From: a phage
Length of the DNA stretch: 52,202 bases
Strand: one strand, 5' to 3'
Assembly: GCA_028524385.1 (NCBI GenBank)
Contig: GCA_028524385.1_3661.2
Below are positions 4,001-23,741 of the stretch, piece after piece. Under the pieces are notes generated by a model. It made no database searches, was not told where the DNA came from, and saw nothing but the letters and a program-made list of their open reading frames with translations. The position numbers and the translations under genes are program-made. Positions within the stretch are counted from its first letter, which is position 1. Every line of letters begins with the position of its first letter.

Positions 4001-6691
4001 CCGTATATAGTCTTCTCGTCTGTCCATGCAAATATGAACGGAGAGAAGTATCCGTTCGACGTTCCGGTAGCCAATAGATACAGACGTGTCGTGATGATCA
4101 TTAAGTGCGACCTGATAGGTAAGCAAGTTCCTGCTGAAAACGGAACATCAACACACCCGTTTGAAATTGCTCTGCACTACCAATTTGCAGATTCGCCTTT
4201 TGCAGGGGATAAGAGAATATCTGATACAGATGCACAGCGTTGTAAGAAGGTATTGTTAGGTGCTGGATGGTGGTGGTATGAGTTTGACTTGACAGACAAA
4301 CTCACAGACAACACAAAAACTCTTACAGGTATTCGTCTGGACCTTGGTGAAAACATGCACAAAAGTGTCTGCGATGGCACCTATGGTGATCCTACAGTAC
4401 ACTTGAAATATGTTTCTCTTGAGCATCCGGAGGAAACTGTTATTGGCCCCAAACTGAGACTGTTTGGCAGCTGGATTGCTAAAGACAGAGTAGGAATGGG
4501 TAAAAAGGTAAGAGGATTCCTGATGGATGCGGGGACAGAAGACATGCTGGTTAATGCAGTGTGGCCTACTCTAGAGGGAACCGACTACAACAATGCTGCA
4601 AGATCTGTCAACTGGTTTAACATCCACAGAGCCATGTGGACTACCAACTGCTATTTGTGGAGAGAGCTTAACGATAATGCCTTCGGCTTCAGCAATGGCA
4701 GAAGGATGGCTATCATTTGCTGGACAACACTGCAACGTTGCTATGACCACAACTATGAAATAGGTGGTAGAGCGTGGAAAGACACCAGGGATAGAATTGT
4801 GTACAACTTTGCAGACGACAACGGTGGTGGAGCGTATAACTTCGGCACAAGCAGACTTATCCACTTAAACGGATCCTCGGCCTACAAGAAAGAAGGTTAC
4901 TCTGGATCCATGATTGAGTGGGGTCTGGTAAAAGATGCTCGCGTATTGATGGGCCAACAACTTGCTGCTGCAATAGGTCCTAACGCAGTGCAATCTGTTA
5001 AACCAGCGTGGTTCGATATTCCATTGTGGTCATCCGGCACACCAGGGACTGCTGCAATCAATCCTACCACGGGAGATCTGGAAATCTCTTGGGAAGACTT
5101 GAAGCAGGTTGGGGGCTGGGATAAGACAGGGTATCAGGTGCAGTGGTGGAAATCTGACGGATCGTTAGCAGCTGATGAGTTTGTTAAGGACAATTTCTAC
5201 ACCATGTCTTCTGCAAAAGCACAGCAATTGTTTGGTCAGGCCACTCCGTCAACGATCACCATGTCTATGTGTTGTAAAGACAACAGGACTGGAGCTCTGG
5301 GACCAAGGGTTGCTAAAGTTTTCTCAGGTATCAAATGGAATCTACCTGTTCAAAGTGTTTCATGGAAGCAAATAGGTGATAACAGGCTGCTGGTTACTCC
5401 TGCTTGCCAGTTCAACGCAACTCTTAACGTTGTTCCGGTTGTTGCAGCAAACTCAGCCAAAGCTTCTGACTTCTCTGTGTCTAACACTGCCATGGCAGAT
5501 GTGAGAAAGATTGACACACTGAATGCAAGAATCACCTGTAAAAACACTTATGGCACCTTCCAGGTTATCAACAACTTCACAGATGCCGATTCTAAGGTGG
5601 TGAGAACCGCAAGCCAGACCTTGCGTTTAGGGACTTTGGCTTATGCAGCATTGATCACTGAGCAGTCATCTACCCTTCAGGGTGGTGGCGTAGGCAAGTC
5701 TATTACAACACCTGTTTGGAAGCCTAACGAGTGGGTTGTGTTTGATTTGACTGTTGACTTCTCCAGTGATAATAACTGGACGTGGGTAAGGGATTGCTTG
5801 TCTCAGTTAATGGGTGGTCCAAGCTCTATCAGGGATAGCCACGACTCTACCGATCCTGGCGTGTTCCAAGTGGGTAAAACTCACCCAGAGACCGGGGCTA
5901 CATTGCCTGACAGGAAGTATGCTTTGGTTTGCATCTCCCACGGCAAGGCCGATGTCACATTCTCAGGGACACATACTTATAACGGAACCTACAACTTCTC
6001 AAGAAAATACAGCCTCAAGGCTGGGAATATTGTAGATGAGGTTGGGGTGTTGTATAACCCTGGCAATGGCATAGGTATTGTTGGCGGTAAACTGCAGATG
6101 CAGGAACCCTCTATCACCCCTTCCAACGTAACAGGGATCAGAAAGACTTGGGAAAGTAGTAATACTGGCATAGCAACCGTTGATGCTAACACAGGACTGG
6201 TAACATTTAAAGCGCCCGGTAATGTCAACATAACGTTTGTAGTTACGGATGATGCAGGCCGCAAGACGTCTTCAACATCTTTCACTGTCAAACAGATGAC
6301 ACCACAGTGGAGAATGTGGATAGGCAGAGCAACAAACGGGGCATACCCAAATCCGGCAGGGACTTCAGGAATGAAGACTTTCTCTGCAAGCAGACCGATG
6401 GAGTATGGCAGCGGTCCTAAAGTAGGGCAAATGGTGTACTTCGGCGCATATATTCCTGAAATTATAGGGCTTCCGAGAAATCAGATCCAGTTGCTGTTCG
6501 GATCTGGAGTTGACGAGCTTGCTACTTTCGGGTATAGCGATAACATCGAGGCTGCAAGAAGTTCCGGATGGGTAGGGTTCAGACTGCAGTTGGCAGTAGA
6601 AGGCAGGGTCATGGGGTTTGGCTCCATAGGTGCCATGCTTCCTGGTGATCAGCAGTATGATCTTGAAGCTTATGCAACTTTCTCTCGTTAA
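1055..6691 (+). CDS. large tail fiber / receptor-binding protein (1878 aa) with C-terminal Ig-like domain
   Basis: Longest ORF; SD ggag 7 nt upstream; size and composition of phage fibers; Ig-like (BIG2-type) segment ...VTGIRKTWESSNTGIATVDANTGLVTFKAPGNVNITFVVTDDAG... near C-terminus. Confidence 0.65.
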   Translation: MLPIPLLKLGRHFLDKRGGIKELAVLSYPIDNSDGTSTAVSYVNSLAILFDDGQLNITGYNKFGECRTGDRNPINYPSETAWNVDHVWRADRAFVIRTFDNQFFYIGCTAGLIGSTAAGGNDVCVREWTPLPEQIVTGLHLDTHPERLVEVMGGINNTVWVIAAPEADGMLHLYGSGNNTYGSLHVDKNQHATPVKIGESSESPETGPWKNPRINCEVHDNSVIFGGPNGFWIAGYDFLRNNSKNTPVYPAEHVTLDQFKGIPVGETWKGFMCGPNGAIIATERMHKPDDQQLVNVFYGQDVWGDDTWRSLNITYTHEVIMARGYGTSGIFFNNGTKQYRGFSRNLCNDIGAQSANNNPRANFIHYRALATAKFVEQTEPVSWTESVYFQGIHREGFLGTFCVVNGKLWWSGIPRGSFSGSNNLFGGRLNSQGFTEIPENWYKNVPVDSWSIEDIFDVNGVSSVSNIYIGDTVKMKLKPQPEGATFIIDKIELVNAAGTVVTDANYQFSTNWNHGGANEIVVTQHNRNINRRGLYSVKITYHDKHGAGRTHTTRNLNWNIIVPAYPSDGKWHTVGRKKQFHVNDTVYFGLNGSQPAPESDTAYMVRLHRQDAGSTTYDVTQEIYDQRRSIYDNLVKTQALWEFNPNGKGGKMLQVNEQNGTSLTVHEHADPWPDPGKPHPGARTLKVVSHNAGYFGIRWEATVKYVDGTTNNIGITLGGTSEDSSLKIAYTPRGISIDNMDIVRNGYGDVNIKVTLGEHLGGERIIMYAFDHDPRTNGTYANQAWSYLINAPEPNTKEFYYGMKRDVCKKTGTHDWIAICVKDERTAWDEPVNRWFIGIPTRSDKYVTEYIVCMGGTNLNLCWNEDANKYSDYDYMRDISCNQWFNQTTGYPPRQARVNPAIFTDTQVFLTKQANEVQTFKNKYDPNKWFYNCYGAFFWGPGELPNGGSCFEAATYGSDYIMGQVKKYKMIPGPETLGNAVDPYIVFSSVHANMNGEKYPFDVPVANRYRRVVMIIKCDLIGKQVPAENGTSTHPFEIALHYQFADSPFAGDKRISDTDAQRCKKVLLGAGWWWYEFDLTDKLTDNTKTLTGIRLDLGENMHKSVCDGTYGDPTVHLKYVSLEHPEETVIGPKLRLFGSWIAKDRVGMGKKVRGFLMDAGTEDMLVNAVWPTLEGTDYNNAARSVNWFNIHRAMWTTNCYLWRELNDNAFGFSNGRRMAIICWTTLQRCYDHNYEIGGRAWKDTRDRIVYNFADDNGGGAYNFGTSRLIHLNGSSAYKKEGYSGSMIEWGLVKDARVLMGQQLAAAIGPNAVQSVKPAWFDIPLWSSGTPGTAAINPTTGDLEISWEDLKQVGGWDKTGYQVQWWKSDGSLAADEFVKDNFYTMSSAKAQQLFGQATPSTITMSMCCKDNRTGALGPRVAKVFSGIKWNLPVQSVSWKQIGDNRLLVTPACQFNATLNVVPVVAANSAKASDFSVSNTAMADVRKIDTLNARITCKNTYGTFQVINNFTDADSKVVRTASQTLRLGTLAYAALITEQSSTLQGGGVGKSITTPVWKPNEWVVFDLTVDFSSDNNWTWVRDCLSQLMGGPSSIRDSHDSTDPGVFQVGKTHPETGATLPDRKYALVCISHGKADVTFSGTHTYNGTYNFSRKYSLKAGNIVDEVGVLYNPGNGIGIVGGKLQMQEPSITPSNVTGIRKTWESSNTGIATVDANTGLVTFKAPGNVNITFVVTDDAGRKTSSTSFTVKQMTPQWRMWIGRATNGAYPNPAGTSGMKTFSASRPMEYGSGPKVGQMVYFGAYIPEIIGLPRNQIQLLFGSGVDELATFGYSDNIEAARSSGWVGFRLQLAVEGRVMGFGSIGAMLPGDQQYDLEAYATFSR

Positions 6692-11237: not shown

Positions 11238-12719
11238 TTACTTAGCGTACTCGATTAATTCCACAGTTTTCCCAAAGCTCGGGATATAATTTTTATTATA
11301 CCCTTCGGTTAGAACCCATAAAGTATCGTACTTTTTCCACTTGTTGTCAACAGCCTTTTGTTCAAAGTTATGCTCAAAGTATAGGTCGGTCAGGACGATG
11401 ACATCTTTTGCATTCGGTATGTTGGCATCCAGATACTCGAACACGCAAGCAGCTGTTGTGCCCCATGTTGAGTGGACCTCATAGTTAATCATCTCGTCTA
11501 TGTTGCCGCGAGTGTATACTTTAACCTCTCCAACCTCAGTTGACCAACAGAACATTGTAACCTTAAACTCTTTATACAGATTGCACAATCCGGTGATTTC
11601 ATTGAACATTTTCTTTAAAGTTCTTTGAGAGATCGAGCCAGAAACGTCTAAAGCCACCACAATATCTATAGTGTTTTCCGGATTACGACCAGGAACAATA
11701 ACGTGCTGGTTCTTGTTTATAGCCCCAACTTTTCGCATTGTGCTGGTCAAAGACCCAGATCGGCGACCAGGTTTTCTGTAGGTCAGTTCAGCCTTTCGTT
11801 TAGACAACATGCGTTGCTTAATGATGTCTATATAGTTGATTACAGGCTTACCTCTGTTCTTGACAAACTCACGCACCGCCTCGGGGCAACGGCCTCCGGA
11901 CGCTTGCATTGCTGCCTCCAGCATATCACCAGAGTCCTGCATGGCCTGATCTTTATCAGATTGGCTGATTACAGGTTGTGGCTGATCATACCCCATAGCT
12001 TTTCCAAGATCATCACTGGTGCCACCGTTCCCACTCATGTGATCATCTGTTTGTCGCTTATCACCTTGAGAGTTCTCACCTTTACCGTTCTTACTTTTAC
12101 CGTTATTCTGATCTCTTTGCTTATCAAGAACTGCATAAACGTTCTCAGCAATCCATCCATGAAACTTCATATCGCAGTAGCAGCTGGCTAAGAAGCCAAA
12201 AGGCTTACCTTTCACGAACGTAGTGCTTTTCCCCTTCGGGAAGAAAACACAAGGAGGCTTGCTAAAGTCCACCACAAGTCCTGTGTTGATAACGTGATCA
12301 CAAGCAATATTGAACAGTTCCGGCTCAAAGCTTTTACCACGGACCAGGTGATCACAGATAATATGCCCCACCTCATGCGACAGAAGAAAGGCCACCTCTT
12401 TCACAGATTTGGGGGAATAGAAAACCTCAGCCATCTCAAACTGCTCGTCAGTTAGAGAAGCCTTAAGAATAGCCTTACGTTCATCAGCCAACCCCATAAT
12501 GAACTCAGGACTGTAATAGATGCGTTTATGGTCGGTTGCCATGGTGGAGCACCATGTATGGTTTTCTACGAACTGCAATCCTGACAGCAGTGTGCCATAA
12601 AACGGCAGCTTTTCAAGGAGATACATACGTGCAGCCTGCAACATTCTCAGGGCATCATCTTTTTGTGAGGCAATGATTTCTGAACTTCTGATATCCATTA
12701 AAACTCCAGAAGGGGCCAT
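11238..12719 (-). CDS. vWA-domain protein with HExxH metallopeptidase-like motif
   Basis: HEVGHIICDH (HExxH) in N-terminal half; MIDAS-type DxSxS motif VVALDVSGSIS in C-terminal half; 493 aa. Confidence 0.55.
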   Translation of the reverse strand: MAPSGVLMDIRSSEIIASQKDDALRMLQAARMYLLEKLPFYGTLLSGLQFVENHTWCSTMATDHKRIYYSPEFIMGLADERKAILKASLTDEQFEMAEVFYSPKSVKEVAFLLSHEVGHIICDHLVRGKSFEPELFNIACDHVINTGLVVDFSKPPCVFFPKGKSTTFVKGKPFGFLASCYCDMKFHGWIAENVYAVLDKQRDQNNGKSKNGKGENSQGDKRQTDDHMSGNGGTSDDLGKAMGYDQPQPVISQSDKDQAMQDSGDMLEAAMQASGGRCPEAVREFVKNRGKPVINYIDIIKQRMLSKRKAELTYRKPGRRSGSLTSTMRKVGAINKNQHVIVPGRNPENTIDIVVALDVSGSISQRTLKKMFNEITGLCNLYKEFKVTMFCWSTEVGEVKVYTRGNIDEMINYEVHSTWGTTAACVFEYLDANIPNAKDVIVLTDLYFEHNFEQKAVDNKWKKYDTLWVLTEGYNKNYIPSFGKTVELIEYAK

Positions 12720-12731
12720 TGGCCCCTGTCA

Positions 12732-13775
12732 TTATTTAACGTGTTTGAAAATACCTGCCAACTCGGTCATTGTCATGCGGGTGGTCTTCATAAGATCTGT
12801 CATAGCTTTCTCCATAATTGGAGATACTACCATAAAGTTTCCTTTAGTGAAACCTTTATTCCAGTCGGTCACCAACAGTGGTTTAAGTCCAGCTCCAAGA
12901 CGTTCACCAGTTAAAGCACAGCATTTGCGAATATACGAACTCTTAAATTGGCTGAACGACAGATCAACTTTCATACCTACATCGTAGAACGTTTGACAAT
13001 AGAAAGTGTAAGCTTTGGCAATCTCAACATCATCAGGTAGTGCAGGAACCTCTTCTGTAAGCTCCTCTTCGACCTCCTGAGTCTCTTTTTCCTCTTCATG
13101 CACCTGTTGCGTCATTTCTTCAATCTCTTCTGTGATAGGCTCGTTTACAATGTCGGAAATGTGCTTCTTGGGTGCACGATAAGTAACTTTAGACATCGGT
13201 AGCATATCTTCCTCCTCTTCTTCGTCAAAGAGTGCTAGTTTATCCTCTTCCGTTCCATATTGCAAGATGAAATCTTCAAAAGTATAATCACCTTTCAATT
13301 TCTCCATACGCTCTTCGCTCAGGTGGAGCATCATCTGCTGGACAATTTTTCGATCAGTTTCGTCTTTAATCAAGACTGCAGTCTTTTTATCTACCAGACA
13401 GTCCTTTAGAGAGTTGCATCTCAATCCCACCACACAACAGTTATCAACCGCATAAGGACCTTCATCATCTATCCGCTCCAGAGATGGGTAGAAAGGATTT
13501 CCCAGCCCGTTTTCATCTGTGTGCATGTCAAAAGGTATAAGGGTATAGTCGCATACTCCATCTCCTAAAAGTTTTTTACCAAATAGGAGGTATTCTTCCC
13601 ATGACAGGTCGAACTCTATATCTCGTTTCCGTGCATTATTCTGTTTGCGTCTATATTTTTTGAGCAAGCGCTCTAACTCTTCTGGTGTATAATATTTTTC
13701 AAGATTCATGAGTCGTCTCTCGTGCTCTGTAAGTGAAGAAATCGTATCAATTGTCTCAACAGATGTCAACATCAA
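12732..13775 (-). CDS. HNH-endonuclease-like protein fused to an unrelated C-terminal segment
   Basis: N-terminal ...ARKRDIEFDLSWEEY...CDYT...SLERIDDEGPYAVDNCCVVGLRCNSLK resembles HNH-type homing endonucleases; internal MSKVTYRA at residue 194 is encoded by a 29-bp sequence repeated inverted at 15035. Confidence 0.45.
   Translation of the reverse strand: MMLTSVETIDTISSLTEHERRLMNLEKYYTPEELERLLKKYRRKQNNARKRDIEFDLSWEEYLLFGKKLLGDGVCDYTLIPFDMHTDENGLGNPFYPSLERIDDEGPYAVDNCCVVGLRCNSLKDCLVDKKTAVLIKDETDRKIVQQMMLHLSEERMEKLKGDYTFEDFILQYGTEEDKLALFDEEEEEDMLPMSKVTYRAPKKHISDIVNEPITEEIEEMTQQVHEEEKETQEVEEELTEEVPALPDDVEIAKAYTFYCQTFYDVGMKVDLSFSQFKSSYIRKCCALTGERLGAGLKPLLVTDWNKGFTKGNFMVVSPIMEKAMTDLMKTTRMTMTELAGIFKHVK
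13173..13201. repeat. 29-bp perfect inverted repeat, left copy
   Basis: tgcacgataagtaactttagacatcggta is the exact reverse complement of 15035..15063. Confidence 0.8.
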
Positions 13776-13782
13776 AAACGTG

Positions 13783-13811
13783 TTGACTTTACTCTAACTC
13801 CACAATATAGT
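13783..13811 (+). promoter_or_regulatory. sigma70-type promoter at strand-switch region
   Basis: TTGACT-17 nt-TATAGT, about 40 nt upstream of ATG 13852 (SD aggag). Confidence 0.55.
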
Positions 13812-13851
13812 GCACCCATTCGAAAGAAAACTAACATAGGAGCACTTACTT

Positions 13852-14751
13852 ATGGCAAATCTTAACAGTTTTAGTACGCGGTGGAAACAGGACATAACAA
13901 CCAATCTTTCAGCTGGGGACATCCTTTCTGCAATTTACGAGGCTTTAGATGATAAAGCTACTTCAAAAGCGGTTTGTACCAACCCACTAATTCCTGTAGT
14001 GATGAAGGTTATTGAGCGCAGATTGGTATCTGGGTCTGATAAGTGGACATATTTAGATAATGAAGGACACACCTATTCCAATGGGTACGTCGATATAAAA
14101 GTAGAATACGCGGTATCATACCGCCGGAGCGGTTCTGTAACTTTCAACTTCTCTGGAGGTTTTCGATCTCTGGCTACCTCACCTTTTGTTTCCTCAGAGG
14201 AGAAGTATGAGCTACCATTTCTTTGGATGATGGCTAACGCGACAGGAAAAACCCCCGTTAGCATCCGAGTAAAATACAACTACAACGGATCTAGTAAGAT
14301 CTATGCCGAAAGTGTCTCAGCAAGTTTTTATTTTGTGATGGGGGATGGAATCCTCAAACATATAAAGATGTGCGATATGCATGATGTTATAAATGAAGTG
14401 ACTGATAAGAATGTTCTAGTGAAAGACCTCAACAATTTTTATACACCCGGAGACTATTACGTCAGCCGTCCACTGTGCATCTTTAATGCCGCACACCCTC
14501 TAGGTGAGTATTTGATCGCCAATAGCGATATTGCCAATAACCGCTTCGAGGTAGCAAGAGTTCAGAATGAGGTATTGACATCTTGCAAGAGCGGTGATAA
14601 GTTTACCGAAGAAGAGATGGGTGTTTTAGAAATGATGGGATATAAGTGTAGCCTTTGGGTAGATGAGGTGTTTAATGATTGCATCTATGGACAGGATATT
14701 TACCCATTAAAGAAGTATACTGATACAAGTTTAATTTATGCGAGGGTTTGA
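13852..14751 (+). CDS. hypothetical protein
   Basis: 299-aa ORF, first gene of rightward block, SD aggag. Confidence 0.5.
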   Translation: MANLNSFSTRWKQDITTNLSAGDILSAIYEALDDKATSKAVCTNPLIPVVMKVIERRLVSGSDKWTYLDNEGHTYSNGYVDIKVEYAVSYRRSGSVTFNFSGGFRSLATSPFVSSEEKYELPFLWMMANATGKTPVSIRVKYNYNGSSKIYAESVSASFYFVMGDGILKHIKMCDMHDVINEVTDKNVLVKDLNNFYTPGDYYVSRPLCIFNAAHPLGEYLIANSDIANNRFEVARVQNEVLTSCKSGDKFTEEEMGVLEMMGYKCSLWVDEVFNDCIYGQDIYPLKKYTDTSLIYARV

Positions 14752-14753
14752 CT

Positions 14754-15026
14754 ATGATGAAGGCATGTGGTAATGTATATTACGTCGGTGAACATGTTCA
14801 GGCAGACAGTGTGTGGAAATCTATTAAGTCCACCACTGACGATGCCTTTCTGAGTGGACTATGTTTCCCCAATCCGGGAGACATCCTCCCCCATCCTGGA
14901 GATTTTGTTGTCAACAAGATGGACGGTTATACCGTGTGCCTGATGGTTGAAAAAATCTTTTTAGACACTAGACACAATCACCGTCTTGTGTTAAAATTTC
15001 AAGAATGTAAAATGACAATTGCCTAA
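14754..15026 (+). CDS. hypothetical protein
   Basis: Track ORF 14748..15026; first ATG with SD gaggg at 14754. Confidence 0.4.
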   Translation: MMKACGNVYYVGEHVQADSVWKSIKSTTDDAFLSGLCFPNPGDILPHPGDFVVNKMDGYTVCLMVEKIFLDTRHNHRLVLKFQECKMTIA

Positions 15027-15034
15027 GGAGACCT

Positions 15035-15063
15035 TACCGATGTCTAAAGTTACTTATCGTGCA
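15035..15063. repeat. 29-bp perfect inverted repeat, right copy
   Basis: taccgatgtctaaagttacttatcgtgca; covers start codon and first 8 codons (MSKVTYRA) of gene 15040..15396. Confidence 0.8.
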
Positions 15064-15396
15064 GCTATTTACTGCAATGAACACCCAATCAATAATGATG
15101 GTCACTGCCTTTTTAAAGAAAATCAATTGGGCTGTATTGTCCTCCCTGATGAAGGGGAAGGTTATCTGATTGCATTGACAGGGTTTGAACCTGAGGCTCT
15201 GGAAGCCAATCTGGACTACCTGGTAGAAGAGGGTGCTGCAGACCTGGTTGCCAATGGCCTCTCCATAAGCCTTGACGAAGTAGAGCGCTTCATGGGCAAT
15301 TACCGTGTAGTGCGTGAGTTTACTATCGAGGTGGAAACTCCCGAGTGGAGTAGCACTGAAACTAATGCCGAAGAAAAAGAAGAGGAGGTAGAATAA
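15040..15396 (+). CDS. hypothetical acidic protein
   Basis: ATG 15040 with SD aaggag 9 nt upstream (track ORF starts at upstream TTG 15019); begins MSKVTYRA. Confidence 0.45.
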   Translation: MSKVTYRAAIYCNEHPINNDGHCLFKENQLGCIVLPDEGEGYLIALTGFEPEALEANLDYLVEEGAADLVANGLSISLDEVERFMGNYRVVREFTIEVETPEWSSTETNAEEKEEEVE

Positions 15397-15653
15397 TGAA
15401 AATACAGATCTTGACTAATGCCGAGAAGATGTTTATTGAAGATACACCTTTTGAAGCTGGTGAGCTACAGTTCGTTTATTTTGTTGACTTAGATAAGGTG
15501 TTTCCTGCACTGAATCTAGGTTTGGATGAAGTTCCTCATAAGGTTTTGTGCCAAGTTGTTCGTGCCTTAGCGGCAGAGGGGGAGTTCCACACCCTTCAAG
15601 ATGTCCAGACCTACGGGTATCTTGAACTACAACGAGAAGAAGAGGTGGACTGA
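15396..15653 (+). CDS. hypothetical protein
   Basis: 85-aa ORF, start overlaps upstream stop. Confidence 0.4.
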   Translation: MKIQILTNAEKMFIEDTPFEAGELQFVYFVDLDKVFPALNLGLDEVPHKVLCQVVRALAAEGEFHTLQDVQTYGYLELQREEEVD

Positions 15654-15655
15654 TA

Positions 15656-16036
15656 ATGGCTCAGTGGAAGACAACAGTTGACCTTCATGATCAGTGGTTA
15701 GGACGCATCACTGAAGACGGGAAGCTAGTGGAGTGGGACAATAAGCATGTTAGCGAGTTGGCAAGTATTGTGGCTGGCAAGTTACGCTCCAAGTTCCCTG
15801 AACAACTGGATCCTGATAGTTCAAAGTTCGATCCTGAGTTGGAGGATGTTGTATACTACTTCGATACCGTGGATGACTACGATGCGTGGTTTGCAGCACG
15901 GGAGCTTTACCCACAAGGCTCTGCTATGCGCCAGATGGAAGAAGATTATCCTCCGTGTGAGCAATTCAATAGTGCAATGACTTGCCTCTATGATTGGGCA
16001 GATAAGAACCTTGTCTGGATTCGGACTGCATTTTAG
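15656..16036 (+). CDS. hypothetical protein
   Basis: 126-aa ORF. Confidence 0.4.
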   Translation: MAQWKTTVDLHDQWLGRITEDGKLVEWDNKHVSELASIVAGKLRSKFPEQLDPDSSKFDPELEDVVYYFDTVDDYDAWFAARELYPQGSAMRQMEEDYPPCEQFNSAMTCLYDWADKNLVWIRTAF

Positions 16037-16080
16037 TGGGCAGGAATGGCGGCAAGGATGCTGCTTAAGGAGTAGTAGAG

Positions 16081-16350
16081 ATGTTATACCAGCAATATGA
16101 ACTTCGTGCAGAAAAAGAGTTAAATTTTGACAAAGATATTCACAGATATTATTATGGGAAAGTTAGAGGGCAAGCAAGAAAGTGTACTCCAACACTCTTT
16201 TATGCCAGCAGACGACTAGCGCCAGAAGAGGCAACAGCAGAAAGGGTTGCGTACAACTGGAGAGTCACGTATGATATTGACAGATTCGATGTGATATCTG
16301 TTTTGGAAAACTTTGAAAACACTTACACACAAGTAGAGGACTTTTACTAA
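16081..16350 (+). CDS. hypothetical protein
   Basis: 89-aa ORF; stop overlaps next start (TAATG). Confidence 0.4.
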   Translation: MLYQQYELRAEKELNFDKDIHRYYYGKVRGQARKCTPTLFYASRRLAPEEATAERVAYNWRVTYDIDRFDVISVLENFENTYTQVEDFY

Positions 16351-17534
16351 TGTCAAGAAACGTATTCGAAAGTGGTCAAATCACTGTCCGTGAGTTGCCA
16401 GCTATTATTCAGTTTGCCCAACGTCATAGCCGATCTGTCCTAATTTTGGGACCAATGGGTGTGGGTAAAAGCCAGGTGATGAAGCAGATCGCTGATAATA
16501 TGTTCGGTGAGCGAGATGACAACCTTGTTGACGTGCGACTGTCAGATAAAGATCCTGCCGACTTATCTGGGCTACCTATCCCTGTAGAAGCGGATGGAAC
16601 TACACGTACAGTGTTTGCAATTCCAGAATTTTGGCCTGCGGATCCTGACTGGAGCGGAATTATCTTTCTGGATGAGCTCACTCATGCAGATAACTACCTG
16701 CAAAAGGTTGCAATGCAAATTATGCTTGACCACAAGTGCGGCACCTATGCATTCCCTAAGGGTTCTGTTTTTGTGGCTGCGGGTAACCGTTCTACAGATG
16801 GTGCGGTTCTTTCGGCGCTCGAAGCCCCTCTGGCTAACCGTTTTATCATTGTAGAGGTTACAAGCAATGCAGAGGTGTTTATTGAGGACTACGCATTCCT
16901 CAACGGGGTTCACTCCTCTGTAATTGGGTATCTGAAAAGAGTTCCATCAGCTATTGATAATTATGAGGCTATGGCTGAGATTAATTGTCCATCTTTTGCC
17001 ACACCACGATCTTGGGTTGCTGCATCTGACATCTTGCACGATTTTGACAGCGGTATTATTTCTGACGCTATGGCCCGTGTTCTTCTGCAAGGTGCTATTG
17101 GTCACACTGCAGCGGTAGAGATCTGGACATACCACACCAAGAAACGCAATTTACCGGAAATCGGTCGGATTATGGCAGGTGGCTGCAAAGAATACGTAGG
17201 TCCTAAGCAGCCAGACATTTTGTGGATTCTTGGATCTGAAGGTTGTATCGCTATTCGTAATATGATGGAAAATGCAAGTATCTCAGACGAAGATCTTGTC
17301 AGCTGCGTGGCAAACTTCCTCGATTTCCTTTGGGAAAACTTCAAGGACGAGAACCGAGATTTTGTATTCTCAGTCTTTATGGCGATGATGAAACCTAATG
17401 CCTTAGGAAATGCCTTGCTTATAGGTAAAGGGCGTGACAAGATTGTTGCTCAGCTGATCAAAGCATACCCAAACCTGATGAAGATTGTAAAAGAGTTTGG
17501 TGAAGAGTTTAGCGCCATTTTGGCTAAAGCTTAA
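16350..17534 (+). CDS. AAA+ ATPase, MoxR-like
   Basis: Walker A LILGPMGVGKSQV, Walker B IIFLDELTHA, sensor region VFVAAGNRSTDGAVLSALEAPLANRF typical of MoxR/CbbQ-type AAA+. Confidence 0.6.
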   Translation: MSRNVFESGQITVRELPAIIQFAQRHSRSVLILGPMGVGKSQVMKQIADNMFGERDDNLVDVRLSDKDPADLSGLPIPVEADGTTRTVFAIPEFWPADPDWSGIIFLDELTHADNYLQKVAMQIMLDHKCGTYAFPKGSVFVAAGNRSTDGAVLSALEAPLANRFIIVEVTSNAEVFIEDYAFLNGVHSSVIGYLKRVPSAIDNYEAMAEINCPSFATPRSWVAASDILHDFDSGIISDAMARVLLQGAIGHTAAVEIWTYHTKKRNLPEIGRIMAGGCKEYVGPKQPDILWILGSEGCIAIRNMMENASISDEDLVSCVANFLDFLWENFKDENRDFVFSVFMAMMKPNALGNALLIGKGRDKIVAQLIKAYPNLMKIVKEFGEEFSAILAKA

Positions 17535-17544
17535 GGGGGGTTGT

Positions 17545-17925
17545 ATGGCTAAAGTAGGTAAGCGGGGAAACTACCTGGTGGTATTGACCGAGGAGCCGGA
17601 GAAGGAGTACGAATGCAGCTCCACTTGCGTGATCGATATCCGAGAAAAAGATGTAGATGAAATCTGGTTTAAAATATTGGACGCTTGCGATAGCAGTGAT
17701 TATTTCTTCATTTATGTCAACGATAAGGCTGGATTCTTCCATGACGACGGAGAGTTGCCGTATGAAATCTATGAACTTGTAGAGGCTTGCCATCGTGGAG
17801 ATGCGGAGTTGTTTGGCCTACGGCTGAAAAGCGGTAAATTCTTCTATCAAGATGAGTGCATGAATCTTCATAACTTTGTAGAGGGAACTTGCAACGATGG
17901 AGAGATTTTGGCACACTACGATTAA
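17545..17925 (+). CDS. hypothetical protein
   Basis: ATG 17545 with SD aagggggg (track ORF begins at upstream alternative start 17497). Confidence 0.4.
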   Translation: MAKVGKRGNYLVVLTEEPEKEYECSSTCVIDIREKDVDEIWFKILDACDSSDYFFIYVNDKAGFFHDDGELPYEIYELVEACHRGDAELFGLRLKSGKFFYQDECMNLHNFVEGTCNDGEILAHYD

Positions 17926-17936
17926 TTTCTAAGACC

Positions 17937-17965
17937 TCCCCCGCTTCGGCGGGGATTTTCTATTT
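17937..17965 (+). terminator. intrinsic terminator
   Basis: GC stem with ttcg loop (cccccgc-ttcg-gcggggg) followed by ttttctattt. Confidence 0.6.
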
Positions 17966-17974
17966 GGAGTCATT

Positions 17975-18475
17975 GTGAAAATTAAGATCTTTGCTATTAT
18001 TTTGAGCGCACTTTTATCGCTGCCTGTTGTTGCAGCACCAAAACAAAAAGTATATCATACTTGCAAGCCCTCAGATACTAAGGAAAACATTCTGGCATGC
18101 AATATCTACAGGGAGGCTAGAGGGGATGGCACGATGGGTATGCTGGCATCAGGGTTTGCCACACTAAACAGGAAATCTCACCCCAAATACCCAGACACTA
18201 TAAGAAAGATTGTCTACCAACCTAACCAGTTTTCGTGGACAAACCACGGCAAAACTTTTAAGGTGACAGAAAAAGATTCATGGGATCACGCTAAAAGTCT
18301 TGCAAAGATGCTTCTAAAGGTCTATAATAACAACCATGTTGCATACATGGCTATGGACATAACAGGTGGAGCAACACACTACCATACAACCAAAGTACGA
18401 CCGAAATGGGCAAAAAAGATGCAGAGGACAGCTCAATTCGGGAGTCATATCTACTACAAGGAGCGCAATAAATGA
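17975..18475 (+). CDS. secreted cell-wall hydrolase, SleB/CwlJ-like
   Basis: N-terminal signal peptide MKIKIFAIILSALLSLPVVAAP; ...CNIYREARGDG...NQFSWTNHGK... matches SleB-type hydrolase pattern; GTG start with SD ggag. Confidence 0.5.
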   Translation: MKIKIFAIILSALLSLPVVAAPKQKVYHTCKPSDTKENILACNIYREARGDGTMGMLASGFATLNRKSHPKYPDTIRKIVYQPNQFSWTNHGKTFKVTEKDSWDHAKSLAKMLLKVYNNNHVAYMAMDITGGATHYHTTKVRPKWAKKMQRTAQFGSHIYYKERNK

Positions 18476-20454
18476 TTGTAAACAGTAATGAAACTAAAGC
18501 AGTACTAACCGGAAATATGGAGGTCACCAGGGGCTCAATTTCTCTGAACAAAGAGACTTTTGGGCTAATCATTAAAGGGATTTACGAAGATAAGGTGCTG
18601 GCAAGCTGCCGTGAACCAATCTTCAATGCTGTGGACTCCCATGTTGAGTCTGGACGGGGTGATGTACCGATCATCATTCACTCTCCTACAGACCTTGAAC
18701 CATACTTCTTTGTGCAGGACGTTGGATTGGGCATGTCGGAAGAGATGGTCCGCAACACTTTCATGAACCTCGGGGAGTCAACCAAGCGCAACAGCAACGC
18801 TCTGGTAGGTAATAAAGGTGTAGGTTCAAAGGCCCCGTTCAGCATGGTGGACACTTTCGATGTGATCAGTGTGCACAACGGTGTTGAAAGCACATATCTG
18901 TTGTTCTTGGATCAGGGTATCCCAAACGTTACCAAGATCCGCGAGCGAAAGACTGAAGAGCACAACGGGGTAAAAGTTCAGTTCCATGTTAAGAAAGAGC
19001 ATGTTCTGAAATATCGCACTGCTATTGCGTCATGCCTACGCTATGCAAAGTTTCCGTTTACCGTTACCGACCCTATGACCAGTAAGATGCTGGAAGGTGA
19101 CAAGGTTGAGGCGCAGTATCGCTACGAGAAAGATGGTTGGAAAATGACTATCCTGAAAGGTTATACCAGCTCTGATGAGAGCCGTGTGGTGATGGGACAC
19201 CAACCTTACCGCTCTAAGTTTCTGGAAACATTGACAGACTACCCTGCAATCTGTGTAGAGATCCCTATCGGGGATTGCAATATTAACCCTGGGCGCGAAT
19301 GGACCATAGAGGGGCACGACGATGGTGGATTCCAGGATCGCCTGGAGGCCTTTGTCAAAGAAGGTATACGTCTTCGTGGGGCAGAAGTTGTTGCGGAATT
19401 GGAGACAGCAAAAACATCCTCAGAAGCACGTGAGATGATGAAGAACAGTGGAGTGTTCGGACACATCTTCGGCAAAAACTTTATGTGGAACCGTTGGGAA
19501 GAAACAGGGCTTGGCGACTTAGGCGATTGTGAAATTTTCGCTGGCGGCTTAAATAAAGGCCGCATAGGCTATGCTCGTTACGGAAAGTCGGAGTTCTTAC
19601 GAGGTGTATACCTTGTATTTAACGACGGAGACGGCAAATATAACCGAAATAAGTGTAACTACTTAAGCGAGATCACCGGACGCAACGTTTTCTATTGCCG
19701 TAACACGGATCTGATGGAAGAGTTTAAAGAAGCGGCACACCACCCGTTCTTTGCAGATACGGTCAAATTGTTATCAGAGCTCCCTCGCCGTCCTGTAAAG
19801 AAAGGTGAAACAAAAACTCACTATGAGCCAGGGTATTGGGTTAAAAAACTTGAGAAAGATGGTTACTTCCGTCGTGAGCGTATTACTAAGGCAGAGTTCA
19901 AGAAGATTAAGCACTGCATTCCTTATGAGGGTGATATCCAACGTGGAAGTTGTTGGCTGGGACAGCTAAGTAACATCTACCAGCAAAATTATGACCGTGT
20001 GCGTGCGGCACTCCAGATTCCTGAAGGGGAAGATCTGTACCTGGTATCAGAATCTCGTCTGCTTTGGACTGATCCTGATTGCCAGTATGTTACAGAGAAA
20101 AATGTGGAACATTTGTTGAAAGAGGATGCCTGGAAATTCTTACTGACTCGCGCAGCAAATGAAACTTCATATGACAGCCTGTATAGACAATTAGGGAAAA
20201 TTATCCCCATGCAAGATTTTGGAAATTATCGGCCACATTTCCACAAGTGGGAAGGTAACACCGCGTGGAAGCACAGTGAGCTAAATCATCGTGCCAAAAT
20301 CTTAATCGCCAACCGAGTCAAGTGCGGGAAGGCCTATATTGCAAGATTGGAAAAGAAATATCCACTTTTGAAGCATGTGGGCTTGAAATATTGGGACACT
20401 CCTGCTATGATTGAATACCGTGAACTGATCGACGCAAAGAATAACACCAAATAA
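18472..20454 (+). CDS. GHKL-superfamily ATPase (Hsp90/MORC-like ATP-binding fold), function unknown
   Basis: N-box IFNAVDS, G1 box VQDVGLGMS, G2-like GNKGVGSKAPFSMVD in N-terminal 120 aa; 660 aa. Confidence 0.45.
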   Translation: MIVNSNETKAVLTGNMEVTRGSISLNKETFGLIIKGIYEDKVLASCREPIFNAVDSHVESGRGDVPIIIHSPTDLEPYFFVQDVGLGMSEEMVRNTFMNLGESTKRNSNALVGNKGVGSKAPFSMVDTFDVISVHNGVESTYLLFLDQGIPNVTKIRERKTEEHNGVKVQFHVKKEHVLKYRTAIASCLRYAKFPFTVTDPMTSKMLEGDKVEAQYRYEKDGWKMTILKGYTSSDESRVVMGHQPYRSKFLETLTDYPAICVEIPIGDCNINPGREWTIEGHDDGGFQDRLEAFVKEGIRLRGAEVVAELETAKTSSEAREMMKNSGVFGHIFGKNFMWNRWEETGLGDLGDCEIFAGGLNKGRIGYARYGKSEFLRGVYLVFNDGDGKYNRNKCNYLSEITGRNVFYCRNTDLMEEFKEAAHHPFFADTVKLLSELPRRPVKKGETKTHYEPGYWVKKLEKDGYFRRERITKAEFKKIKHCIPYEGDIQRGSCWLGQLSNIYQQNYDRVRAALQIPEGEDLYLVSESRLLWTDPDCQYVTEKNVEHLLKEDAWKFLLTRAANETSYDSLYRQLGKIIPMQDFGNYRPHFHKWEGNTAWKHSELNHRAKILIANRVKCGKAYIARLEKKYPLLKHVGLKYWDTPAMIEYRELIDAKNNTK

Positions 20455-20464
20455 GGAGACAGCT

Positions 20465-21670
20465 ATGATTTTCATCTACGAACATTTCAAAACTCGTAAA
20501 GAAGCACGCGACCGCCGTGCAGAACTTGAGAAGAAGGGTTTCACATGTGCTATTGAGAAAGGTACTACAACATGGACACTGGCAGTAGGTGCCCCAGAGC
20601 TGTTTGATCCTGACCGAGACAGTGTCTGCTATACCCGTGAGGATTTTGAAACCCGCGAAGAGGCACGTTTATTCCGCTACGGACTGGAAGACAACGGTAA
20701 GTACGCCATGATCTTAGATTCAGGTGAAGGTTCCGTTAAACGTTGGGGCGTGGTATACCCACTGTGTGTTGTTCACGGTGTGGGGTTCACTGGGGTAGCA
20801 ATCAAGTCAGAAGAACCTTTAGTAGAAGTCAAAGATCCGGTGCTGGAAGTGGTGAGCAGTGTGTCTCAGCAACAGTCTCGAAGCATCGAGCCTTTGGTAG
20901 TTATTTGCGGGGAACTCCTCCAGATCACCTGCAACGAAGGCATTTTTGAAATTCGCCGCAGCGAAAGTGAGGAAGTTTACCAGAAAGTCTTCGACCATAT
21001 TTCTGTTCAGGAATATGATGAGGCAATTGGTGAAATCCTTGTCTGGCTGGAACGCAAGAATGAGTTCACCACACTTGCAGACAACCTGATCATGAAAGAT
21101 GGTAAGCTCTACTACTACGGTGTAGAGATGCGATCCACCATTGCAAAGAAAATTGAGGAAGATTATGTAGATGGAACACTGGACGACCGATATGTTAAAT
21201 TCCTTGTCCGTCTGCTACGCAACCCGTCTGCAAAATCTGTGAACATGCTCTACGATTTCATGCAGGCTAATGACATCCAGGTTGCAGAAGATGGTCGAAT
21301 CATTTGCTATAAGGGGGTTCAGTTTAACGGGAGCAGGTGGGTGGATTGGCACAGCGGTAAAGTTCCACAATACCAGGGTGCTTTTGTGTCCATGCCTCGT
21401 AACTTTGTAGAAGATGATCCGGAAGCTGCGTGTTCTTATGGCCTGCACTGCGCCAGCAAAGAGTATGCAGCGGGCTATGGCACTGTAATGATGGTTATGG
21501 TTGACCCTGCGGATGTGGTTAGTGTGCCATACCAACACAACAGTGCTAAGTGCCGTGCATGCCGCTACGAAATCGTAGCAGCACCGGAATCACGCAAAGA
21601 TGGCGATCCGATTGAATACGTAGTTGACCGTGATGGTAACATCATCGACATTATCTACGAGGAGGCGTAA
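20465..21670 (+). CDS. hypothetical protein with N-terminal tandem repeats
   Basis: 401 aa; two about 35-aa repeats (TRKEARDRRAELEKKGF... / TREEARLFRYGLEDNGK...) at N-terminus; SD aaggag. Confidence 0.45.
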   Translation: MIFIYEHFKTRKEARDRRAELEKKGFTCAIEKGTTTWTLAVGAPELFDPDRDSVCYTREDFETREEARLFRYGLEDNGKYAMILDSGEGSVKRWGVVYPLCVVHGVGFTGVAIKSEEPLVEVKDPVLEVVSSVSQQQSRSIEPLVVICGELLQITCNEGIFEIRRSESEEVYQKVFDHISVQEYDEAIGEILVWLERKNEFTTLADNLIMKDGKLYYYGVEMRSTIAKKIEEDYVDGTLDDRYVKFLVRLLRNPSAKSVNMLYDFMQANDIQVAEDGRIICYKGVQFNGSRWVDWHSGKVPQYQGAFVSMPRNFVEDDPEAACSYGLHCASKEYAAGYGTVMMVMVDPADVVSVPYQHNSAKCRACRYEIVAAPESRKDGDPIEYVVDRDGNIIDIIYEEA

Positions 21671-23040
21671 TGGAAAAAGGGCAGTATGACGTAGGCACAG
21701 ATGCTGCCCTCATTGCAATCATGAGCGGTGAGAATGTCTTCGTTTCAGGACCTGCAGGTTGTGGGAAGACGTATCTCATCAACATGATCCAGTCAATGTA
21801 TGGAGACTCTTGCATAACGGTTGCCCCGACAGGGGTAGCCGCTTTAAACGTTAATGGAGCAACAGCACACCGAACATTCGATCTTGCAGCAGGTGTGAGC
21901 ATGGAGTCGGACTGGACTGCAATAAGGGCAAAAACAGCAAAGCCTTTGAAAAGCAAGGCATTTACCATCCTAATTATCGATGAAATCTCTATGATCCGTG
22001 CTGATAAGTTTATAGAGATGGATAGGAAACTCCGCTTCCTTCGAAAAAATGACAAACCTTTCGGAGGCATACAGGTCATATTGTTTGGCGATTTTTACCA
22101 AGCACCTCCTGTTGTCTCTTCTATGGAGAAGGAAGCCTACTTCAACTTCTACCATACGGACCTGTGTTGCTATACCGAATCTTGGAAAGAACTTGACCTC
22201 CACAACATAGCCCTAGTAGATCAGTTCCGACAGGAGTCTATTCGATTTGCCACAATGCTCAACTGTGTTCGTGAGGGTCGTCGCATAAAAGAGGTTGTAG
22301 CAGAACTTAATGCTCGTTGTTACAAAGGCGGTGTACCAACAGACGCTCTCACAATTTGCGCCACCAACAAACAAGCGGAGGAAGTGAACAGAAGGTTCTA
22401 TGATGCCATCAACGCCCCAGAAAAGGTATACACTGGTGAAATGAAGGGTAAGTTTCCCTCCACCCTGCCAGTTGAGCAGGAGATGAAGTTGAAAATTGGC
22501 ATGAAAGTTATGATAACCGCCAACGATGTTGACCCGACGCACAAAGTACCTTATTATGTTAACGGAACACGTGCCACAATTGTTAAATTTAAGAACAAGG
22601 CGGTGGTGGTAGAGCTTGAAGATGGAACACAGGTTGACATAGAACAGAGGTTGTGGGAGAATAACGAGTATAAGCCATCTCAAAGATACAACATTGCAGA
22701 AAGGAAGATGGAGAAGTTTATAGAGAGGGTAGTGATTGGATCATACAAGCAACTTCCTCTGAAATCTGGGTATGCCGTAACATCTCATAAAAGTCAAGGA
22801 CTTACGCTAGATTGTTACAACCTGGACCTTGGAAAGAACGGAGCTTTCTCTCCTGGGATGACGTATGTTGCTTTGAGTCGAGTTAAGACAATACAAGGGA
22901 TAAACTTGTTGCGTCCACTAAGAGAAGTTGATATTATTGTTGACCCGAGAGTCGTAGAGTTTTACAATACAACATTCCCTGACTTAGACAAAATTGTCAG
23001 GAAAGATTTTGAAACCAGAGCAGAAGAGGGGGACGTATGA
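21670..23040 (+). CDS. SF1B DNA helicase (Pif1/RecD/Dda-like)
   Basis: Walker A GPAGCGKT, motif II IIDEISM, motif III ILFGDFYQAPPV, motif V GYAVTSHKSQGLTLD, motif VI YVALSRV. Confidence 0.75.
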   Translation: MEKGQYDVGTDAALIAIMSGENVFVSGPAGCGKTYLINMIQSMYGDSCITVAPTGVAALNVNGATAHRTFDLAAGVSMESDWTAIRAKTAKPLKSKAFTILIIDEISMIRADKFIEMDRKLRFLRKNDKPFGGIQVILFGDFYQAPPVVSSMEKEAYFNFYHTDLCCYTESWKELDLHNIALVDQFRQESIRFATMLNCVREGRRIKEVVAELNARCYKGGVPTDALTICATNKQAEEVNRRFYDAINAPEKVYTGEMKGKFPSTLPVEQEMKLKIGMKVMITANDVDPTHKVPYYVNGTRATIVKFKNKAVVVELEDGTQVDIEQRLWENNEYKPSQRYNIAERKMEKFIERVVIGSYKQLPLKSGYAVTSHKSQGLTLDCYNLDLGKNGAFSPGMTYVALSRVKTIQGINLLRPLREVDIIVDPRVVEFYNTTFPDLDKIVRKDFETRAEEGDV

Positions 23041-23378
23041 GTTTGTGGAGAAATATAGTTAACTACGTGTGTGGCAATCCAACTCCTGAAGAGAAGGATG
23101 TTGTGATTCACGATTTTACTAAAAGATCTCGTGAAAAAGACCTACTGCTAACAAAGGTGACTGATAAAGATCCTGCAGTAGGGGACTGGGCAGGTTTTGC
23201 GTTTACATCGGACAAATACACCTTTAACAAAGGTGACTATCTTGTTGTAGATTTTAACGAAGACATTGATGGTGCTGAACCTTACTATCAGACCCTTATT
23301 ATTGCAGGGTGCGTTGATCTCTCTGCAGGCATGCACAGTTTGATTCTTTTTGAGCTTGACTCTGAAGACCTTCAGTAG
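23037..23378 (+). CDS. hypothetical protein
   Basis: 113-aa ORF, start overlaps helicase stop. Confidence 0.4.
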   Translation: MSLWRNIVNYVCGNPTPEEKDVVIHDFTKRSREKDLLLTKVTDKDPAVGDWAGFAFTSDKYTFNKGDYLVVDFNEDIDGAEPYYQTLIIAGCVDLSAGMHSLILFELDSEDLQ

Positions 23379-23438
23379 TAAGATGTTAGTCTAAAGGGGA
23401 GGCACTCCTCCCCACAAAAACTAAGGAAGCACTAAACG

Positions 23439-23741
23439 ATGAAACGTTATAAACCGTACACTTTTGAAATCGATTTCGAACTTGACGATATGTTTACTGT
23501 GGAAGCTCAAGCAGTTGTCCAGTTGCCAGACTCGGAGTGCCGTGACTCTGATGTTGACTATTACGGATTTAGACAAATTACCGATGTGCGTGTTTACCAC
23601 AACGGTGAAGAGGTGGACTTCCACCAACTGCCAAACGATATGCGCCACTCAATTTACAAACGTGCAGCCCGTGAACTAGAGTCCTATCTGGATGCAGCGA
23701 CGACAGCAGCTGCATTTGCTGAAGAAGTTGGAGGTTTCTGA
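23439..23741 (+). CDS. hypothetical protein
   Basis: 100-aa ORF preceded by GC hairpin, CA-rich leader and SD aaggaag. Confidence 0.45.
   Translation: MKRYKPYTFEIDFELDDMFTVEAQAVVQLPDSECRDSDVDYYGFRQITDVRVYHNGEEVDFHQLPNDMRHSIYKRAARELESYLDAATTAAAFAEEVGGF

Follow-up and report, generated by a model that had tools for sequence, protein, structure and literature searches.

The 52,202-nt phage contig GCA_028524385.1_3661.2 (NCBI GenBank assembly GCA_028524385.1), called the window here at its full length, carries on its plus strand genes for a MoxR-family AAA+ ATPase (16350-17534, 394 amino acids, aa), a predicted Sec-exported SleB/CwlJ-family cell-wall hydrolase of the Hydrolase_2 type (17975-18475, 166 aa) and a GHKL ATPase (18472-20454, 660 aa). 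The initial annotation had delimited these three open reading frames (ORFs) correctly, but regarded them as an unusual neighborhood inside a replication module and the GHKL protein as one of unknown function. Judged by its homology, the 660-aa protein is a phage copy of the classic T4 rIIA and is so annotated in many GenBank records. We consider it highly probable that the region is a conserved early/accessory block of an rV5-like coliphage, which comprises three independent modules and not one system. The sole new element, for which the evidence is suggestive, is an Hsp90-type Arg-Glu loop conserved across rIIA proteins.

Searching region 16000-21700 by megablast matched 123 phage records, 83 of which cover at least 80% of the query, and the best match was Escherichia phage naswa (Vequintavirus, rV5-like), with 99.9% identity over 16000-21700. 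By these matches the window is a Vequintavirus (rV5-like) coliphage; an N4-like phage, considered from the gene content, was rejected on the BLAST result. The order MoxR ATPase, hypothetical protein, cell wall hydrolase (SleB), rIIA, rIIB and helicase is already annotated in many GenBank records, and since more than 80 records carry most of the block, it is ordinary for the subfamily and not unusual. MoxR, the hydrolase and rIIA are already annotated, partly characterized accessory genes and not replication machinery.

Within the block, the MoxR protein matched phrog_1297 (E = 2e-110), and its gene is followed on the same strand by one for a conserved hypothetical protein (17545-17925, 126 aa; phrog_12370), whose orthologue bas54_0064 in phage Bas54 is non-essential, and by an intrinsic-terminator-like hairpin with a T-rich tail (17939-17962). 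Downstream of rIIA, also on the plus strand, lie rIIB (20465-21670; phrog_609, T4 rIIB homology) and a Dda/PIF1-like superfamily 1 helicase gene (21670-23040; PF05970, E = 1.3e-32; phrog_325, E = 2.6e-111), the first of the DNA-metabolism genes. A metallopeptidase-VWA protein (DUF2201_N plus DUF2201) is encoded upstream on the minus strand (11238-12719). The rIIB gene, the hairpin and this VWA partner gene had gone unmentioned in the initial annotation.

rIIA and its likeness to Hsp90

The rIIA product matched phrog_612 ("RIIA") at E = 2.2e-124 over residues 1-656 of 660, its aa 1-198 aligned with T4 rIIA at 28% identity (BLASTP, E = 3e-21), and a hidden Markov model (HMM) of its family matched T4 rIIA at E = 9e-67. 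The rIIB gene starts 10 nt past the rIIA stop, and T4 has the same pair in the same order, rIIA then rIIB, in an early region near DNA-metabolism genes. Since T4 rIIA adjoins its topoisomerase genes, the location of rIIA near DNA-metabolism genes is typical and adds nothing unusual to the neighborhood. Unlike the N-terminal part, the C-terminal half of the window rIIA does not align with T4 rIIA by BLAST. A tblastn search placed relatives in 2643 phage records, among them those of T4-like, N4-like, Felix-O1-like, Streptomyces and jumbo phages, and many of the alignments to distant phages stop at residue 276, that is, at a conserved Arg-Glu.

The GHKL boxes N, G1, G2 and G3 were found in order in rIIA, with the N box REPIFNAVD at aa 47-55, G1 DVGLGM at aa 83-88 and G2 GNKGVGSK at aa 113-120, and the Bergerat fold was recovered as well. 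The N box, G1, G2 and G166 showed no variation among 25 homologues, the most distant at 19% identity, and Pfam HATPase_c_3 (PF13589) was matched at E = 1.8e-8 (34.9 bits vs a cut-off of 25). The invariant boxes and the Pfam match above cut-off argue against a chance similarity of the motifs, a possibility that the initial annotation had allowed for; the other possibility it had raised, ordinary replisome components, did not hold either, the genes being conserved accessory ones instead.

The Hsp90-like GHKL ATPase domain of rIIA spans aa 28-199 (18553-19068). A family profile of rIIA searched against PDB retrieved Hsp90-family N-domains with E values down to 5.5e-9, and the best 60 of 139 matches were all from the Hsp90 family; a single-sequence PDB search with rIIA gave insignificant matches only, so that profiles were needed. 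By hhalign, rIIA matched E. coli HtpG with a probability of 96.6% (E = 5e-10; 23% identity over the HtpG N-domain). An AlphaFold model of rIIA had a predicted local distance difference test (pLDDT) score of 83.6, and its top 50 Foldseek matches were, 50 out of 50, Hsp90-family chains (E = 5e-16). The Hsp90 family (HtpG, TRAP1 and GRP94) resembles rIIA in its N-terminal Bergerat-fold ATPase, with all boxes aligned, and is its best match in both sequence and fold, yet the identity in the fold alignments is 12-19%. The N-terminus had been described as "Hsp90/MORC-type", of which the Hsp90 part was borne out by profile, hhalign and Foldseek, whereas the assignment to MORC failed, as the MORC-specific motif GhxhhpxxRhl (PMC2292703) was not found in rIIA by a regular-expression search.

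A second domain follows at aa ~200-345 (19069-19506) and contains the invariant R275-E276 in DCNINPGRE (19273-19299). In the family HMM alignment, IPIGDCNINPGREW of rIIA and FPMGSLDIAPSREA of T4 rIIA fall onto IDSSDLPLNVSREILQ of HtpG, the loop cores being DxNxNPGRE in rIIA, DIAPSRE in T4 and DLPLNVSRE in HtpG. The latter segment is the catalytic-arginine loop of the Hsp90 middle domain. Both R275 and E276 were invariant in 25/25 and 13/13 aligned rIIA sequences, T4 and distant metagenomic members included. The alignment of the Arg-Glu of rIIA with the Hsp90 catalytic loop is suggestive, not proven.

The initial annotation had proposed remote-homology and structure searches of the 660-aa protein, and these yielded the Hsp90-like N-domain, while the C-terminal half (aa ~346-660, ~315 aa), searched within the whole model, gave no convincing PDB match or fold relatives. 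An Hsp90-type C-terminal dimerization domain was not detected in rIIA, and this ~315-aa region without relatives stands there instead. Because the middle domain was not significant by sequence and the C-terminal dimerization domain was not found, rIIA was classified as Hsp90-like and not as Hsp90. No link of rIIA to Hsp90 or HtpG was found in the literature searched, in which the published description of rIIA is "GHKL plus variable C-terminus" only (PMC7824862).

The partner protein rIIB matched phrog_609 at E = 2.4e-60 and the T4 rIIB core with 36% identity over 204 aa (BLASTP, E = 2e-38), in which only aa 172-371 were aligned; its homologues carry PF26926, and the conserved core extends over aa ~170-375. 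In the rIIB model (pLDDT 73), two beta-alpha-beta-beta repeats at the N-terminus are joined to the conserved core by a disordered linker. The repeats (aa 3-42 and 53-103; window 20465-20800) each bear an F(K/E)TR(K/E)EAR motif and lie in an extra N-terminal region of ~130 aa relative to T4 rIIB, the N-terminus not being aligned by BLASTP. A SPOR-like reading of these repeats was considered and found unsupported: the Pfam match (E = 0.0033) did not reach the cut-off, and in Foldseek the SPOR domain of CwlC came only at rank 8 (E = 0.55). Searches with rIIB gave no sequence match in PDB and none of significance by Foldseek, so that its fold does not yet inform the mechanism.

Regarding function, T4 rIIA/B, described as protectors against early lysis induced by a prophage, counter lambda RexAB, a membrane-depolarizing abortive-infection system, and rIIA/B of the Felix-O1-like phage Bas63 counter QatABCD (PhageMaP, PMC11482910), while rIIB triggers bacterial gasdermin systems (PMC10312443).

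The MoxR ATPase and a metallopeptidase-VWA protein

The MoxR protein has intact Walker A (GPMGVGKS, 16449-16472), Walker B (IIFLDE, 16659-16676) and AAGNR (16776-16790) motifs. Its own Pfam scores were below the gathering thresholds (AAA_5, 16.7 vs 22), and the MoxR-type AAA+ call of the initial annotation was upheld transitively: among its 5710 database homologues, those at E of about 1e-44, which are 34-35% identical across ~85% of the length, have the MoxR domains PF07726 and PF07728 and in some cases PF20030. A single-sequence PDB search retrieved nothing beyond the P-loops of Clp ATPases and p97, and the family profile matched midasin AAA modules (E = 4.5e-11). Both the AAA+ core and the membership in the AAA_3-AAA_5 (MoxR/midasin) clade were recovered. 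Immediately upstream, an 89-aa gene (16081-16350) overlaps the MoxR start by 1 nt; its product is labelled "ATPase" in PHROGs (phrog_13164) and naswa, apparently through annotation inheritance.

The protein encoded at 11238-12719 matched PF13203 (E = 3e-28) and PF09967 (E = 3.6e-11), with both its HEVGH (aa 115-119) and its MIDAS motif DVSGS (aa 358-362) intact; relatives' annotation puts its start at Met8 (12698). It is called "HNH endonuclease" in PHROGs and "putative anti-sigma factor" in naswa, and both names look like mis-annotations. On other phage contigs, a DUF2201_N plus DUF2201 gene comes directly after that of a MoxR homologue (P0079, 35% identity), and phage pairs of MoxR and metallopeptidase-VWA proteins have been described (Iyer et al. 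2021, PMC7824862), which share with the window pair the AAA+ motifs and a partner bearing HExxH and MIDAS. Such pairs are adjacent elsewhere, whereas the two genes here are 3.6 kb apart and on opposite strands; the window MoxR also has a ~210-aa C-terminal extension past the AAA core. It is 100% identical to Bas54 gp0063. The partner of MoxR is likely this divergent VWA-metallopeptidase, and not the hydrolase or rIIA.

Phage Bas54 (MaxBurger), whose orthologues are 96.5-100% identical to the window proteins, was used as the reference for phenotypes. The identities are 100% for MoxR (bas54_0063) and the hydrolase (bas54_0065), 97.9% for rIIA, 96.5% for rIIB, 99.3% for the Dda-like helicase and 98.8% for the VWA-peptidase (bas54_0055). 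In the HIDEN-SEQ transposon study of this phage (bioRxiv 10.1101/2025.11.20.689424), all these genes proved non-essential on E. coli K-12, insertions having hit 89-95% of their TA sites; the MoxR and VWA-peptidase orthologues took insertions at ~94% of TA sites and the hydrolase gene was 89% saturated, while the annotated endolysin gene bas54_0202 took no insertions and is essential. Since all of them are non-essential on K-12, none is a required part of the replisome, and the placement of the three enzymes in a replication module lost its ground.

One HIDEN-SEQ comparison with a clinical isolate, apparently CFE311, was used. In it, insertions in MoxR (log2 fold change −7.23, q about 0), the Dda-like helicase (−6.32, q about 0) and the VWA-peptidase (−2.20, q = 0.009) were depleted, and none of the values for the hydrolase (−0.88), rIIA (−0.01) and rIIB (−0.34) was significant (10.1101/2025.11.20.689424). 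The sheet with this comparison, in Extended Data Table 8, is titled resampling_K-12_vs_CFE303, its command line names the 311 library, and sheets Data S6 and S7 agree in the values compared, so that the supplement is probably mislabelled. By knockout, MoxR was found to be needed to overcome a predicted defense system of strain CFE311, DS-28, the knockout being sensitive when DS-28 is expressed in K-12 (10.1101/2025.11.20.689424). Literature searches on the nature of DS-28 gave nothing useful. The Dda/PIF1-like helicase is conditionally required and possibly related to defense.

The exported hydrolase and the gene junctions

The hydrolase gene has a GTG start with GGAG 7 nt upstream, and its product matched PF07486 (Hydrolase_2) at E = 2.1e-19 (70.4 bits vs a cut-off of 27) and the SleB catalytic domain 4f55 at E = 2.4e-6, in which YREARGD was aligned to YGESRGE. 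Its putative catalytic residue, Glu47 (18113-18115), falls on the glutamate of YGESRGE in 4f55, the catalytic residue of SleB. A Sec signal peptide, MKIKIFAIILSALLSLPVVAA, precedes PK at the N-terminus (17975-18037, KD 2.3-2.7) and is kept in the orthologues of four other phage groups. The identification as a SleB/CwlJ-like hydrolase with a signal peptide thus stood as first given. The protein shares the catalytic domain and the conserved YxExRG glutamate with the SleB/CwlJ spore-cortex lytic enzymes; SleB proper was rejected, as NCBIfam spore_SleB (TIGR02869) scored 48.3 bits vs a cut-off of 236.5, with only the catalytic part aligned and the N-terminal peptidoglycan-binding domain missing. 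Unlike spore SleB, it is predicted to act in the Gram-negative periplasm.

A SleB-like gene is present in 1240 phage records, T5-like and PAK_P1-like phages among them, and a SleB-like protein with a signal peptide, toxic when expressed, is conserved across Vequintavirinae (Buttimer et al., PMC7344957), with CB7_83 and CR3_087 as members that share the signal peptide with the window hydrolase. The adjacency of hydrolase and rIIA is limited to close relatives: it is found in Klebsiella phage KP12, with a 170-nt gap and no overlap, while in Certrevirus, phi92-like, phAPEC8-like and T5-like phages the hydrolase gene has no rIIA beside it, and Certrevirus lacks rIIA/B altogether and has a holin-like gene that overlaps the hydrolase (PMC7344957). 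A functional link of hydrolase and rIIA by conserved synteny was rejected, the adjacency not being conserved outside close relatives. KP12 has an unannotated hydrophobic ORF of ~51 aa between the two genes (4950-5105), and the Certrevirus Enterobacter phage F4M1E has a 65-aa ORF over the hydrolase stop (4926-5123), at the site of the holin candidate of CB7 with two transmembrane segments (PMC7344957); the window has no such small ORF between hydrolase and rIIA.

As the initial annotation had noted, the stop of the hydrolase gene and the start of rIIA overlap in ATGA (ATG, 18472-18474; TGA, 18473-18475), from which co-translation of the two had been suggested. The overlap is ordinary gene packing: in the corresponding 17.7 kb of naswa, 7 of the 18 junctions between co-directional genes overlap likewise. 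Because AAGGAG lies 8 nt upstream of the rIIA ATG, rIIA could be translated by coupling or by independent initiation. The hairpin CCCCGC-TTCG-GCGGGG (17939-17954; six G-C pairs, TTCG loop) with its T-rich tail was the best terminator-like site in 13600-23500 and sets the MoxR unit apart from the hydrolase gene, whose GTG follows after 20 nt. The records of phages HdK5, EdH4 and Gotham also place a terminator in this stretch. No recognizable sigma-70 promoter was found after the hairpin (17939-17962) by the promoter scan.

Some observations concern the window and its relatives more generally. At 23378-23439 the window is without a ~1.3-kb N6-adenine methyltransferase gene that is present in naswa and Bas54, an organization as in phage MaxTheCat. 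Unannotated "Campylobacter phage" records with the host C. jejuni (MG065635, MG065655, MG065646 and MG065656) are near-identical to these E. coli phages; there were 16 such records in the DNA search and 23 in the hydrolase protein search, and the rIIA of one of them, C12, is 100% identical to that of the window. Their host label looks doubtful.

Competing explanations and proposed roles

On the reading that follows from the initial annotation, MoxR, the hydrolase and the GHKL protein form one unusual functional unit in the replication module, the last two being translationally coupled because they act together. It is true that the genes are co-oriented upstream of the Dda-like helicase and a primase/helicase, that the ATGA overlap with the internal AAGGAG is real, and that the hydrolase stands next to rIIA also in KP12. 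However, the terminator-like hairpin splits MoxR from the hydrolase, DUF2201 VWA-peptidase genes accompany the MoxR homologues of other phages, the KP12 genes have a gap in place of the overlap, four phage groups keep the hydrolase without a neighboring rIIA, overlaps are frequent at neighboring junctions anyway, MoxR was depleted in the one clinical isolate compared when hydrolase and rIIA/B were not, and all the genes are dispensable for replication on K-12; a single unit is hardly credible. A DNA-acting rIIA, that is, a DNA clamp of the topoisomerase, MutL or MORC type, would fit its place among DNA-metabolism genes. It is nevertheless very unlikely, given that the best 60 of the 139 profile matches and the top 50 Foldseek matches all belong to Hsp90, that the conserved residue of the second domain is an Arg in an SRE-type loop as in Hsp90, that the MORC-specific motif is absent by the expression search, and that Bas54 replicates on K-12 without rIIA.

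For MoxR and the VWA-metallopeptidase, a chaperone/co-chaperone pair that serves virion (tail or head) assembly and proteolytic maturation, and not anti-defense, was weighed. Iyer et al. 2021 (PMC7824862) proposed such a function for the same domain pair in jumbo phages, for the Acidianus two-tailed virus it has been shown, and the pair is widespread in phages beside DNA-metabolism genes. Since ~94% of TA sites take insertions in both orthologues on K-12, virions assemble without the two proteins, and the MoxR knockout was sensitive specifically when DS-28 was expressed in K-12, which makes a role in assembly quite unlikely here. Likewise unlikely is a lysis module, with the SleB-like protein as a Sec-exported endolysin or lysis accessory timed by rIIA/B as "lysis inhibitors". 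Against it, the separate endolysin bas54_0202 takes no insertions, so that the SleB-like enzyme is not the lysis enzyme, and bas54_0065 takes them at 32/36 TA sites, failing as an endolysin required for lysis; the annotated i- and o-spanin genes lie a long way from the block, where the terminase operon begins; Certrevirus keeps the hydrolase without rIIA/B (PMC7344957); and prophage exclusion systems, not endolysin control, are taken to explain the T4 rII phenotype. In its favor are the endolysin label given to the hydrolase in PHROG and several GenBank records, the signal peptide, the toxicity of the CB7 homologue when expressed, the implication of the CR3 homologue in lysis and the holin-like gene with two transmembrane segments that overlaps the hydrolase in Certrevirus (PMC7344957), besides the naming of rII mutants for rapid lysis.

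For the three independent modules, the following roles are proposed. MoxR and the VWA-metallopeptidase would form one ATP-driven remodelling/proteolytic device that acts on a DS-28 component, in which the VWA MIDAS site may bind the target, the ATPase remodel it and the HExxH peptidase cut it. The hydrolase would be an exported periplasmic peptidoglycan hydrolase, probably an auxiliary factor that assists wall remodelling or lysis. rIIA may be Hsp90-like and work as an ATP-driven clamp or in the manner of a chaperone; with rIIB it would bind and disable membrane-acting components of host abortive-infection systems, its variable C-terminal half setting specificity. The stronger form of the latter, that rIIA is a genuine and very divergent two-domain Hsp90-family ATPase, with Arg275 as the catalytic arginine, an ATP-driven client clamp and rIIB as adaptor, is put forward tentatively and is rather doubtful at present.

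Several results weigh against these proposals. A profile of the rIIA middle domain only (A3) retrieved nothing significant from PDB, and when the second domain of rIIA was compared with the HtpG middle domain by hhalign, the SRE loop was picked at a non-significant E of 0.026 (probability 1.9%). Neither on K-12 nor in the single comparison with a clinical isolate did Bas54 rIIA/B show a phenotype. The partnership of MoxR with the VWA-peptidase is drawn from co-occurrence and co-depletion, and the depletion of the peptidase was much weaker than that of the ATPase. Moreover, the promoter scan gave no convincing promoter for a hydrolase-rIIA-rIIB unit, none being above the shuffled expectation.

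MoxR together with the divergent VWA-metallopeptidase, if they act as one anti-defense module, would give a tangible entry point to the way in which DS-28 is defeated. Protection from abortive infection by rIIA is known from T4 (RexAB) and Bas63 (QatABCD), and by analogy may extend to the rIIA of the window. An Hsp90-like ATPase with an invariant Arg-Glu is common to rIIA proteins from T4 to Vequintavirus to metagenomic relatives, and E48 and R275 are testable residues for the long-unsolved rII mechanism. If the clamp interpretation is true, the variable C-terminal half of rIIA would set the range of clients, and the 70-year-old rII system would be one that captures and disables membrane-acting abortive-infection proteins, such as RexAB, Qat and others.

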